NCBI GenBank assembly: GCA_963666315.2
Contig: CAXXHG010000020.1
Span: 1 to 64,000, forward strand
Length of the DNA stretch: 64,000 bases
Source of the DNA: Candidatus Binatia bacterium
GTDB taxonomy: Bacteria; Desulfobacterota; Binatia; Bin18
Reading direction: 5' to 3'
Within the stretch, counting starts at the first letter, position 1, and every line of letters begins with the position of its first letter. Below, one piece after another: positions 49,345-52,984 of this stretch. The notes beneath the pieces are model-generated. The model worked only from the letters and a program-made list of their open reading frames with translations, was not told the DNA's origin and did not search any database. Made by a program: the position numbers and the translations under genes.

Positions 49345-51504
49345 ATGCGCAGTTTGACCGGATAGCACGTCATCGAGCAGCTGTACGAGAGTCCCACCTC
49401 GCTGGTATACCGCGCCCAGCGCGAGAGCGAGCAGTTTTCGATCATCCTCAAAATCCTCAAAGAAGAGTACCCGAGTCCGGCCGAACTGGTGCGCTCCCGC
49501 CAAGAGTACGAGATCACGCACAGCCTGGAGCTCCCGGGCGTGGTCCAGGTCTACAGCCAGCAGCCCTACCAGAACACCTTAGTGATGGAGGTCGAGGACT
49601 TCGGCGGCCGGTCCCTGGATCTGTGGCTGCAGGAGCAGTCTTTTCCTGTGGTCGACGTCCAGCTGACGGAGACGCTGGGCCAGGTGCATGCGGCCAACAT
49701 CATCCACAAGGACATCAATCCCGCTAACATCGTCTGGAACCGCGAGACAGACACGCTCAAGCTGATCGACTTCGGCATTGCCAGCCGCCTGTCCCGGGAG
49801 ACGCCGACCATCACCACGCCCCACCGCTTAGAAGGCACGCTGGCCTATCTGTCACCCGAGCAGACCGGGCGGATGAACCGGGTGGCGGACTACCGCACGG
49901 ATTACTACTCCTTGGGCGTGACCCTGTATGAGTTACTGACCGGCCAGGTGCTGTTTGTGGGGGACGATACGTTGGCGCTGGTGCATGCTCATTTGGCCAA
50001 GCCACCCGTGCCACCGCAGGTGATCAAGGCGGCGATTCCCGACAGTTGGTTGAAAGTCCGATCAACCGGATATTGCAAGGAAGAACGAGTCTCCAGTTGG
50101 GCGAGCATACCGCCTTGCTCACCCGTGATAGCAAGGAGCGCGCGGTGGACGGGAGCGGTGCGCCGATTTACAGCGCAGACGGGAAGCTCAAAGGCGCGGT
50201 CATGGTTTTTAGCGATGCCACCGAGCAACGGCGCCTAGAGGAAGAGTTACGTATGGAAGCCCTGGTGCTGGAAAGCATGGCCGAAGGTGTTCAGATGGCA
50301 ACCGAGGAGCGTATTATCTGTTTTACCAACCCGGCCTGGGATGCGATGTTCGGCTATGAACGGGGAACGTTGGTGGGACAGCATGTGTCCGTCCTCACGG
50401 CCGATCCCCCGGCAGAGCGTGCCCGGATTGCTGCAGACACCAAGGCACAGTTGCAGCGCGAGGGAGTGTGGATCGGTGAGTTTTCCAACTGCCGCAAGGA
50501 CGGCAGTCAATTTCTATCCGCGGCCCACATCAGTGTGCTGGAGGAGATGGATAAGCACTACCGGGTATCGGTTCAGCAAGATATCACCGAACGCAAGCAG
50601 GCCGAACGAGAACTGCGCCGGGCGAAAGATTCAGCCGAAGCTGCAGACCGAATAAAGTCCGAGTTTTTAGCCACAATGTCGCATGAGCTCCGCACGCCTC
50701 TCAACGTCATCCTCGGGTATGTCGATCTGCTGCTGGATGGGGCCTTCGGCGATCTGATCGATGAGCAGACGGAATGCGTCCGAGCCGTTTGAACTGATCG
50801 CTGCCATGCCGGAGTTGAGCCAGCTTGAGGCTGGTCGGTTACCCATAGAGATTCAACAGGTGCATCTTCCTGAGCTGCTGACAGAGATTCGAGCCGAGAT
50901 CCAGGATACGCAAGAGCGGTCTAATATAGACTTTGAGGGGAAGATCGAAGCCGATCTGCCCCTCCTCCAGACCGATCCGGGCAAGCTGAAAATCGTTTTG
51001 AAAAACTTACTCAGCAACGCCATCAAGTTTACAGAACAGGGCCATATCACGATCGAGGTCCGCAGGGACCAGAGAGGAGTGGAGATTAGCGTGAGCGACA
51101 CCGGTATCGGCATTCCTCAAGAGGCGCTCAGCCTTATTGTTGACCCCTTTCGTCAAGTCGACAGCTCAGCCACCCGCCAGTATAGGGGGACGGGCCTGGG
51201 ACTCCATATTGTAAAACATCTCCTGGACACCTTGAGCGGGGAAGTGCGGGTGGAAAGTGTGGTCGGACAGGGCTCAACCTTTCACGTGAAGATGCCAACC
51301 CTCGCAACCCTCCCGACCCGCGATGCCCTGGGGACATTAGGCTGCGACCCGACATTTTGCTCGGCCTCGCCCCAGACCTCCACTGCGCTGACAGGTCACT
51401 CTTCCGACGGCATGCAGCAGCCTGCTCCCTCTAGATCGTTGCAACGGACGTGTCTCGGTGCGAGTCCACACCCGCTTGCCGTTCAGCTCCTAGTGTGGCA
51501 ATAG
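49345..51504 (+). pseudogene. Degraded Ser/Thr kinase-PAS-histidine kinase hybrid (HstK-like)
   Basis: MRSLTG-TAG(49363)-HVIEQLYES...IIHKDINPANI...LIDFGIA...YLSPEQTGRMNR; frame break near 50045 into PAS and HisKA ([13 protein letters not shown]); second break near 50790 into HATPase (NLLSNAIKFT, DTGIGI, GTGLGL). Confidence 0.85.
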
Positions 51505-51532
51505 TCACAGGCGCAAGGAGCGCAAGGAGCGT

Positions 51533-52258
51533 ATGATGCACATCCCGCACGAGGCGTATCCGCCTGGATTTGCCGAATATCTGCAACCCCTGCTCGATGC
51601 CCGCCTGCGCTTTCTCGAAAACATGTCGGCAGTCGAAAAACGCATCTGCCACGGCATCATTGCCTCCTTTCCGCAGCTCGGACGAGGACCAACGGCGGCC
51701 GAGCTGGCAGAACGTACGACTCTCTCTCTAGATCATGTTGTGACTACGCTTACCCACCTGAGTACGCGTGACATGCTCAAATATGATGCGAAGACGGGCT
51801 GCGTTATTGCCCTCTACCCCTTCTCGGATGTGCCGTGTCCACATCAAGTTCAACTGGCCGGTACACAACGCCTGTACGCCATGTGACCCGGCGGAGCGAT
51901 CGCCCTTCCCATCGTGTATGGGCCAGGAACCTCAGCAACTGTTTTTTCTGAATGCACCCAGTGTCAGGCACCGATTCAGTTCGATATGACCGTCACCGAA
52001 GACGGCGCAGTAAGTTCCGCAGCGTCTACCGAAACCTTGCGCGAATGGGATCCTGTGTTCATTGATGCAGACCATACTCTACCGCATCTGCTGGATGGAT
52101 TTTGACTCCGCGTGCAGTTCTTCTGTAGCGAAGAACATTTCACCCAGTGGAAAACTGAGAATCCTGACGAAGAAGGATTTCTGATTACGTTCAGTCAAAG
52201 CGCACGGATCTGTCAGTCCTTCTATGGCGGCCTGTTAGAGACGTGTCGCAATCTATAG
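51533..52258 (+). CDS. MerB-like (organomercurial lyase fold) protein with two putative selenocysteines (TGA 51884-51886 and 52103-52105)
   Basis: One continuous frame of 241 aa: N-terminal wHTH, YPFSDVPCPHQV, RLYAM-U-PGGAIALP, VFSECTQCQAPI, LDGF-U-LRVQFFCSEEHFTQW. Matches MerB RLYAWC96ALD, VSSHC117 and QSFC159CHVHFF. RBS AAGGAG; start may be ATG 51536. Confidence 0.82.
51908..51922 (+). promoter_or_regulatory. Candidate SECIS for the first UGA of the MerB-like gene
   Basis: CCCAT-CGTGT-ATGGG, 5-bp stem starting 21 nt after the UGA, G second in the loop. Weaker than the other two candidates. Confidence 0.4.
52117..52136 (+). promoter_or_regulatory. Candidate SECIS for the second UGA of the MerB-like gene
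   Basis: GTTCTTC-TGTAGC-GAAGAAC, 7-bp perfect stem starting 11 nt after the UGA, GU in the loop. Confidence 0.65.
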
Positions 52259-52306
52259 TGGAGTCTGGATCTTTCTCATATGCCTGAAGTAAGGAGTACA
52301 TTATCC

Positions 52307-52984
52307 ATGGTCCATTTACTCATTGCCCTCAAACGCAAAGACGGTCTCAGTCGAGCTGATTTCTCTCGCCATTGGCGCGAAATACGTGCTCCGCTTGCCA
52401 AGCAAATGCCGGGGCTACGGCGTTATATTTAAAATCATAGTCCGACTATCCTGAGCCGTAGACTCGCCTATGATGGCGTAGTGGAAATCCGGATGGATAC
52501 TGAAGAGGCCATCACAGCCGCCTTTAATAGTAAGGAATACCGTGCTGGCGCGTACGCGGATGAACCGAACTTTGCAAATGTCAAAGACGTCGTTCGTCTT
52601 GTCACCGAAGATCATGTCCTGCACGCAGGTGAGGAAAGCAGCAGCCCTGAGCCGCGTATCAAACGGCTTTCTTTTATTAAACGGAAACCAGAATGGGACC
52701 GGGACGAGTTCTTTCGATACTGGAAAGACATACACGGCCCGATGGCGCTCGCGATGCCCGGCCTCCAACGTTAGGTGCATTGCCACGCCCTGCCCTCTGC
52801 GTATGAAAAGGGCGAGCCGCAGTACGACGGTGTGGCTGAGCTGTGGTTTGATACGCTTGGCGATCTCAACTTTACCCTGGCACGAGAAGAGTACAAAGAA
52901 GGCGCTCGGCCCGCTGGTCTCAAGTTCGTCGATCCAGACAGTATGCTGACTCTCATCACTGAGGAATATCGGATCGTGTACTAA
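52307..52984 (+). pseudogene. Tandem EthD-domain protein with two nonsense codons
   Basis: One frame: KRKDGLSRADFSRHWRE...PGLRRYI-TAA(52430)-NH...YDGVVEI and KRKPEWDRDEFFRYWKDIHGP...PGLQR-TAG(52772)-VHCH...YDGVAELWFD. Confidence 0.85.

Follow-up and report, generated by a model that had tools for sequence, protein, structure and literature searches.

Among the enzymes that cleave Hg-C bonds, MerB is, to our knowledge, the only one that is well understood; its mechanism depends on a pair of cysteines and an aspartate, Asp99 being the proton donor. In Haft & Gwadz (bioRxiv 10.1101/2022.07.06.499078) and in the titles of PDB entries, Cys96 and Cys159 are described as holding the mercury, with Asp99 in the active site, and the former source also cites a serine form of MerB as binding copper. 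The same preprint describes SaoL, a MerB-family protein with one selenocysteine (Sec, U) in a CU dipeptide, which keeps Cys99 and Asp102, is encoded in a nine-gene SAO locus and has been reported from anaerobes alone. Here, a gene at positions 51533-52258 of a 64,000-nt stretch of DNA from a Candidatus Binatia bacterium (GenBank assembly GCA_963666315.2, contig CAXXHG010000020.1, positions 1 to 64,000; the window) was analysed. This gene very probably encodes a functional MerB-fold selenoprotein, in which both in-frame UGA codons are predicted to be decoded as Sec via downstream hairpins by the SelA, SelB, SelD and tRNA-Sec of the genome. Sec would thus occupy both mercury-ligand positions, with the catalytic Asp replaced by Gly in the clade of the window protein, and the group appears to be distinct from both MerB proper and SaoL.

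Two-Sec proteins of this kind were looked for in the literature. In a 2022 review of selenoproteins (PMC9312934) SaoL is the sole MerB-like entry and no motif is given, and in a 2026 review (PMC13188914) it is again the sole MerB-like entry, listed as 'CU, 1'. The main text of the GOS survey (PMC2398784) holds no MerB entry. Full-text literature searches returned no two-Sec MerB-like protein; supplementary tables and Haft & Tolstoy 2025 lay outside their scope and may list one.

Reading frame and relationship to MerB

On the forward strand, 241 codons followed by TAG form one frame, and the translation is interrupted solely by TGA at codons 118 and 191, just as the original prediction had read it; the opposite strand contains stops throughout. 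The eight Cys codons of the gene (39, 90, 102, 141, 144, 198, 227 and 238) are all TGC or TGT, in agreement with the earlier claim that the remaining Cys codons are intact.

The read-through protein was matched by the Pfam family MerB (PF03243) with 59.3 bits against a gathering cut-off of 27 (E 4.9e-16), residues 97-231 being aligned to positions 1-125 of the 126 positions of the profile. HMMER alignments to PDB structures of MerB (1s6l, 5c0t) and MerB2 (5c17) placed RLYAM-U118-PGG on RLYAW-C96-ALD, by which Gly121 comes to stand at Asp99, and DGF-U191-LRVQFF on QSF-C159-CHVHFF. The prediction that both TGAs fall on the metal-binding Cys columns and that the Asp99 column is Gly was borne out by these alignments. 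By simple arithmetic, the chance that two random stops fall on exactly these 2 of 241 columns is approximately 3e-5.

The AlphaFold2 model of the read-through protein, built with an alignment of 23 sequences, reached a predicted local distance difference test (pLDDT) score of 94.4 and a predicted template modelling (pTM) score of 0.90. In the Foldseek comparison with the PDB, the top 11 matches were all MerB or MerB2 (E 8.9e-13 to 2.5e-7, TMt 0.56-0.77). The best sequence match among solved structures was MerB2 5c17 (HMMER, E 7.3e-9), which was also the best match by fold. Membership in PF03243 is consequently supported both by score and by predicted fold. The protein is below the cut-offs of the NCBIfam equivalog models for MerB (50.6 bits vs 193 for NF009710 and 42.5 vs 200 for NF033555), and it departs from the features that characterise EC 4.99.1.2: the Cys96 and Cys159 columns both hold UGA (Sec), which is a swap of the chalcogen and not a loss, the Asp99 column holds Gly121, and a mer operon context is lacking at the locus.

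Selenocysteine machinery and conservation of the UGA codons

The presence of Sec machinery in the genome had been named in the original prediction as a test of the reading, and the machinery was found: SelA (522.6 bits), a tRNA-Sec adjoining selA (66.8 bits), the SelB-specific wing domain (79.5 bits) and SelD (308 bits). The SelD match (G000:C28:39602-40519) is located inside a 761-residue open frame, which makes a fusion of SelD with some other domain probable. The tRNA-Sec model also matched at G000:C24:117587-117673, with 50.2 bits against a gathering cut-off of 47; this may be a different type of long-arm tRNA. The best match to FdhA in the genome ends at a contig edge before the Sec site. 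TGA as a genome-wide sense codon was ruled out, as TGA terminates 9 of the 30 open reading frames (ORFs) that reach 300 codons or more in the window, and SelA, SelB, SelD and COX1 are without internal stops.

An orthologue was detected in 5 of 27 congeneric genomes with 62-89% identity. All five carry two TGAs, which in translation are located at the same codons (RLYAM-U-[PA]GGAI and LDGF-U-xR[VM]QFF), and SelA was found in 25 of the 27 congeners, including all five with the two-Sec gene. The copy in G009 is cut by a contig end, and the copy in G024 (L014/L050, G024:C3) was matched in two frames, possibly as a decaying copy or due to an assembly error. Beyond the genus, a metagenome homologue (L070) with 50% identity retains the Gly as well as the two TGAs (RLWGM-U-AAGTIAIP and MLDGM-U-LRVKFFCSEEH). 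The orthologue test proposed with the original prediction therefore turned out in favour of a selenoprotein, as none of the orthologues found has Cys in place of TGA and the hairpins described below are conserved.

Ratios of nonsynonymous to synonymous substitution rates (dN/dS, Nei-Gojobori) were calculated for the window gene against L016 and L017, the two most distant congeners. They amount to 0.11-0.14 for codons 1-117 and to 0.135-0.145 for codons 119-190; for codons 192-241 the ratio is 0.15 against L017, while dS was saturated against L016 and gave no value. With ratios of about 0.11-0.15 throughout, the reading frame is under purifying selection beyond each of the TGAs. In pairs of close orthologues, the proportion of synonymous differences (pS) falls from 0.39-0.55 upstream of the first TGA to 0.15-0.24 downstream of it, which fits a constraint by RNA structure in a small sample.

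A sequencing error in place of TGC or TGT had been considered as a further explanation of the TGAs. Both TGAs are covered by assembled contigs of three runs (X1, X3 and X8), which belong to three studies, and no difference is listed at either, an evidence that comes from contigs and not from raw reads. None of the runs listed for the sequence is an RNA run, the metatranscriptomic label of X8 being a guess. X1 contains the identical strain and a diverged strain and is possibly the sample from which the window was assembled, X8 represents a diverged strain, and a further run (X4) is without coverage of the TGA sites.

The family of two-Sec MerB-like proteins

The original prediction had regarded the gene as an orphan. 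This view was given up, as the window protein belongs to a large two-Sec MerB-like group. In a sample of 401 genomes of the same phylum, matches were found in 39 genomes. Among the 47 matching places listed, 36 have two in-frame TGAs (one of them also TAA), 7 have one (several being partial) and 4 have none. Translation was carried out for 35 loci (L039 was dropped, as it gave no tblastn hit at the threshold used), of which 30 have exactly two U, 2 have one and 3 have none. For alignment A1, 23 of these 35 loci were used; the 12 left out are the copies with a frameshift or cut by a contig end, together with ten further sequences of clade b, mostly close to the rows that were kept, which were omitted to limit the size of the alignment. 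The only invariant columns of A1 are 118, 141 and 191. The CxxC motif (C141, C144) noted earlier is present; its description as extra was not upheld, the motif being found across the family, as C141 is invariant in A1 and most of the Cys-type relatives listed carry both cysteines.

The two-Sec sequences fall into three clades. In clade a, the group of the window protein, the first site reads U-[PA]-[GA]-G, and the Asp99 column holds no acid but Gly in all seven sequences that cover the site. Clade b (22 sequences) reads LYAA-U-AxDA and has Asp in 22 of 22. Clade c (2 sequences) reads U-x-F-E, with Glu at the Asp99 column. Accordingly, only the clade of the window has lost the catalytic acid, judging from these alignments, and its sister clade b keeps Asp. 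In a quick IQ-TREE analysis of 79 rows, whose midpoint root serves for drawing only, a sister relationship of clades a and b received a Shimodaira-Hasegawa-like approximate likelihood ratio test (SH-aLRT) support of 95, clade c was placed together with Cys/Glu forms (98), and a true SaoL from the phylum sample (L036) is located elsewhere. Proteins of clade b (loci L022-L048) have approximately 245 residues with a hydrophobic N-terminal segment, and a MarR-type regulator ORF is located upstream in 10 of the 22 loci. Within 1.5-kb flanks, a few clade-b loci adjoin a MerR-type regulator or a methyltransferase ORF. All three two-Sec clades are below the NCBIfam cut-offs for MerB and SaoL, and no model of NCBIfam release 20.0 was passed by two-Sec MerB-like proteins.

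Among full-length relatives of at least 180 residues, 111 of 124 have Cys/Asp/Cys at the three catalytic columns. A word-indexed protein search at near length gave no match, which is expected because the database entries are truncated: in public protein sets, this family is present only as fragments cut at the TGAs. In a representative library of 1.84 billion proteins, the closest relatives are fragments that end exactly before a TGA, namely N-terminal pieces of 113-126 residues ending in ...AM, ...GM or ...PM (42-78% identity), 63-residue middle pieces ending in MLDGF or MLDGL and one 51-residue C-terminal piece. Eight clusters of such fragments at 90% identity comprise 76 members, of which only 8 are named, each as 'hypothetical protein'. 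and alignment A5 recovered only two metagenome loci. One of these eight, a 73-residue entry from Candidatus Entotheonella serta (P0185, PON15164.1), is a clade-a middle piece that ends in MLDGF before the second Sec position, and clade a thus extends past the genus of the window. If the truncated entries were corrected, annotation would benefit, the selenoproteome would be enlarged by a two-Sec family, and mercury and metalloid biogeochemistry would obtain a new candidate gene outside mer operons.

Hairpins downstream of the UGA codons

The hairpins that the original prediction had seen after each TGA, candidates for selenocysteine insertion sequence (SECIS) elements, were recovered at both sites (Table 1); the one at site 2 is significant by itself, and the one at site 1 is supported by its conservation. 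At site 2 a z score of -3.39 was obtained, and 0 of 200 shuffled sequences were as stable. The site-2 stem is present in all 30 aligned two-Sec sequences (29 distinct), usually as UUCUUC-Y-GGUC-R-GAAGAA, with four invariant core pairs. At its closing pair, 12 distinct sequences have C-G and another 12 have U-A, a compensatory change which joins a Trp/Arg codon with the third base of a Ser codon. In the G024 copy, the site-2 loop reads UCUAGU and is without the GU found in the other five clade-a copies. The GGUC loop together with the 11-nt spacing is reminiscent of the SECIS of E. coli fdhF. At site 1, 93.5% of the cells of the family alignment are paired, and pair 28-44 is U-A in 22 sequences and A-U in 6 (clade a). 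The shuffle controls for conservation of the hairpins in the family ignore kinship and are not to be read as probabilities.

The FF..EE motif encoded by the site-2 stem is absent from the Cys-type MerB-like paralogue of the same genome (NFFCSATH), as would be expected if RNA structure constrains the codons. Taken together, the general features by which selenoprotein genes are recognised were found here, that is a conserved in-frame UGA aligned to Cys in homologues, purifying selection downstream of it, SECIS hairpins, and selA, selB, selC and selD.

Genomic neighbourhood and mer-type genes elsewhere

The features annotated at the locus are compiled in Table 1.

Table 1. Positions in the window of the two-Sec MerB-like gene, its elements and neighbouring features
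Feature	Position	Strand	Remarks
Two-Sec MerB-like coding sequence	51533..52258	+	241 residues and TAG; N-terminal winged-helix-like domain, C-terminal MerB core
UGA codon 118, predicted selenocysteine	51884..51886	+	aligned with MerB Cys96; kept in all orthologues found
UGA codon 191, predicted selenocysteine	52103..52105	+	aligned with MerB Cys159
Candidate SECIS for UGA-118	51908..51922	+	CCCAU / loop CGUGU / AUGGG; 5 bp; starts 21 nt after UGA
Predicted SECIS hairpin for UGA-191	52117..52136	+	GUUCUUC / loop UGUAGC / GAAGAAC; 7 bp; starts 11 nt after UGA; encodes FF..EE
Two tandem copies of GCGCAAGGA	51512..51529	+	each with Shine-Dalgarno-like AAGGAG; directly before ATG ATG start
Ser/Thr kinase-PAS-HisKA-HATPase, three overlapping frames	49489-50238, 50046-50792, 50761-51504	+	pseudogene or assembly frameshifts
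EthD remnants	52308-52774	+	41-codon start up to a TAA; second, later fragment in a different frame
Sodium:solute symporter, split ORFs of 411 and 100 residues	55698-57254	-	both match one 502-518-residue ORF in G020/G024

The 9-nt unit GCGCAAGGA, of which the window contains two copies, holds the ribosome-binding motif. In run X8, one contig has a further 9-nt copy, GCGCAAGAA, after position 51510, and the copy number of GCGCAAGGA before the start codon is therefore variable.

The neighbours of the gene in the window are HtrA, rhomboid, a methyltransferase, the kinase pseudogene and the EthD remnant, with no mer genes flanking it, as stated before. In four orthologous loci (G020, G024, G013 and G016), the minus strand encodes an HtrA-type protease, a rhomboid protein and an S-adenosylmethionine (SAM) methyltransferase; the rhomboid protein was unmatched in the G013 and G016 loci, and a glutathione S-transferase (GST) gene is present in the G013 locus and a GST fragment in the G020 locus. 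Divergent to the methyltransferase, these four loci contain the MerB-like gene, a hydrolase of the proline iminopeptidase family (TIGR01250, 337 bits) and a two-domain EthD protein, followed by a MaoC-type dehydratase and, in G020 and G024, by the sodium:solute symporter. In the window the broken kinase is located between the methyltransferase and the MerB-like gene; it is absent in G020, where the two genes are 39 nt apart. The neighbours of L070 are unrelated (enoyl-CoA hydratase, catechol dioxygenase, amidohydrolase), and no partner is therefore conserved beyond the genus. A conserved operon of methyltransferase, hydrolase and EthD was rejected as a functional unit, being shared in the genus and absent at 50% identity (L070).

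A separate mer-type cluster is located elsewhere in the genome (G000:C47:135900-138400; L084 2927-5325). It comprises a MerR-like gene, two small ORFs, a MerB-like gene with Cys/Asp/Cys, MerT and an HMA/MerP-like gene. The MerB-like paralogue in this cluster scored 117.6 bits with the Pfam model and has 31% identity to the window protein, and the presence of a Cys-type mer cluster in the same genome suggests that the two MerB-like paralogues do different jobs. No MerA adjoins the cluster, and none over the cut-off was found in the genome. The C-terminal Cys pair is diagnostic of MerA, and a MerA candidate on contig C18 (395.5 bits against a cut-off of 454) was rejected, being without this pair. 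The genome encodes a heme-copper oxidase, and DsrA was not found in it.

Proposed function and alternative explanations

Selenols are more acidic and softer than thiols. By homology to MerB, the two selenols of the window protein may face each other in a bis-selenolate site, and such a site could capture a soft metal or organometal(loid), i.e. Hg, methylmercury or possibly As, Se, Te or Cu species. Classical protonolysis is unlikely because the Asp is missing, from which the chemistry other than MerB protonolysis proposed in the original prediction likewise derives; the metal would either be held and handed over, or the C-metal bond would be cleaved by a selenium-assisted route instead of Asp-driven protonolysis. 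Lacking a conserved operon partner, the protein appears to work on its own in a genome that also has the separate Cys-type mer cluster. By analogy with MerB, this functional proposal (a bis-selenolate site for soft metals or organometal(loid)s, independent of Asp and acting alone) is given a slight preference, and the statement as a whole, in which selenoprotein identity and function are combined, is considered rather probable. As sister clade b keeps Asp, the alignments suggest MerB-like metal chemistry as the ancestral state, from which clade a would be derived. A conserved protein with selenium at its two ligand sites, in which Asp is kept in one clade and lost in its sister, constitutes a natural experiment on chalcogen identity and the acid catalyst in organometal chemistry. 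A more far-reaching and doubtful idea is that two-Sec MerB-like proteins form an unrecognised class of selenium-dependent organometal(loid) enzymes, and that the bis-selenolate centre of clade a breaks C-metal or C-metalloid bonds without an acid catalyst, for example in methylmercury demethylation, in bacteria capable of O2 respiration that were detected in marine-sediment metagenome contigs. If true, this would constitute a mer-independent route of methylmercury or organo-metalloid turnover.

Several observations weigh against a functional selenoprotein gene with the proposed site. The site-1 hairpin (-4.6 kcal/mol) has a z score of only -1.19, with 24 of 200 shuffled sequences as stable, and the whole 48-nt stretch after UGA-118 is no more stable than its shuffles. 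In clade a, an alternative hairpin of 5-6 bp with similar energy overlaps the site-2 stem, and an Rfam scan of 51400-52400 matched no family. Neither a promoter nor a terminator was found at the gene in simple scans. The adjacency of the two Sec residues is presumed from homology to MerB only. The gene is found in 5 of the 27 congeners though SelA is found in 25; given these counts, it is a dispensable, accessory selenoprotein gene. Moreover, the surroundings are decayed: compared with the orthologous loci, the hydrolase gene is missing in the window, EthD is in fragments and a broken kinase is located upstream. Such broken or missing flanking genes would also be in line with a decaying pseudogene in which the TGAs are inactivating mutations, as would the truncation of the gene at the TGAs by public gene callers and a frame break near residue 27-30 of the G024 orthologue, which indicates that some copies may be decaying. 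That explanation, which the original prediction had itself set against the selenoprotein, is nevertheless very improbable: both TGAs persist in homologues of 50-89% identity, with low dN/dS past them, they fall exactly on the Cys columns of homologues, the hairpins are conserved and covary, and the Sec machinery is complete.

With a functional selenoprotein accepted, a redox enzyme has to be considered, in which the two Sec would alternate between diselenide and selenols on a MerB fold recruited to reduce substrates such as disulfides, selenotrisulfides or C-S/C-Se compounds instead of handling metals. The two Sec occupy positions that are neighbouring in MerB, the catalytic Asp is lost, GST sequences are located near two of the orthologous loci, and with SelL a diselenide-forming two-Sec protein is known. 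However, clade b keeps the MerB-type Asp beside its two Sec in every sequence, which suggests that metal chemistry is ancestral, and there is no conserved reductase partner, the context being wholly different at 50% identity; a redox role is therefore regarded as unlikely. Still less probable is a metal(loid) sensor, whose N-terminal winged-helix-like domain would bind DNA while the bis-selenolate senses a soft metal and controls, for example, the divergent methyltransferase gene. It would agree with weak matches of residues 48-87 to Pfam families of the helix-turn-helix type (E 0.017-0.14, below cut-offs), with weak Foldseek matches over approximately 60 residues to regulators of the DtxR/MntR/LexA type (E 0.05-0.1), with the divergent orientation to the SAM methyltransferase, seen in the window as well as in each of the four orthologous loci examined, and with the gene standing alone. 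The N-terminal domain is, however, shared by MerB enzymes, and superposition on MerB extends to the entire model, over 220-226 alignment columns; furthermore, the adjacency to the methyltransferase is lost in L070, and in the window the two genes now have the kinase pseudogene of about 2 kb between them. A MerB-like bis-selenolate site for soft metals or organometal(loid)s is hence preferred over both.

Comparison with known systems

With MerB (plasmid R831b; PDB 1s6l, 3f0o, 3f0p) the window protein shares the fold, the order of domains and PF03243, and the two metal-ligand columns as well as the structural Cys (C141 in the window protein, Cys117 in MerB) are conserved. It differs by Sec at both ligands, by Gly for Asp99 and by an identity of only approximately 20%. 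Its gene is without a mer operon, unlike the Cys-type MerB-like gene of its own genome, which is located between merR and merT/merP-like genes. MerB2 (5c17) and the MerB D99S mutant (5c0t) are likewise without the Asp, MerB2 having Ser at that column, and MerB2 is the closest solved structure in sequence and fold; both keep the two Cys, whereas the window protein has Gly instead of Ser and two Sec.

Like the window protein, SaoL is a selenoprotein of the MerB family whose database entries stop at the UGA, and its authors align its Sec to MerB Cys159. The window protein differs by two Sec instead of one, F-U191 instead of CU, Gly instead of Asp and the lack of SAO-type neighbours: no ABC transporter or efflux genes were found beside the gene in the window, the four orthologous loci and L070, the rest of the genome not having been searched for sao genes. 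In line with the earlier remark that a sao operon is absent and the lineage may be a separate one, the SaoL model NF040728 gave 35.5 bits for the window protein against a cut-off of 140, while the SaoL from the phylum sample (L036), used as positive control, reached 170 bits. Furthermore, the genome of the window protein encodes a heme-copper oxidase, whereas SaoL has been reported from anaerobes alone.

Clade b, the sister group in the quick tree and not named in the literature consulted, has Sec at the same two columns and homologous hairpins after both UGAs. It is distinguished by the retained Asp (U-A-x-D), the hydrophobic N-terminal extension and a frequent position after a MarR-type gene, and it has approximately 20-25% identity to the window protein. 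SaoL is the only MerB-like selenoprotein that was found in print, and the new features described here are the two-Sec site and, in clade a, the lost Asp.

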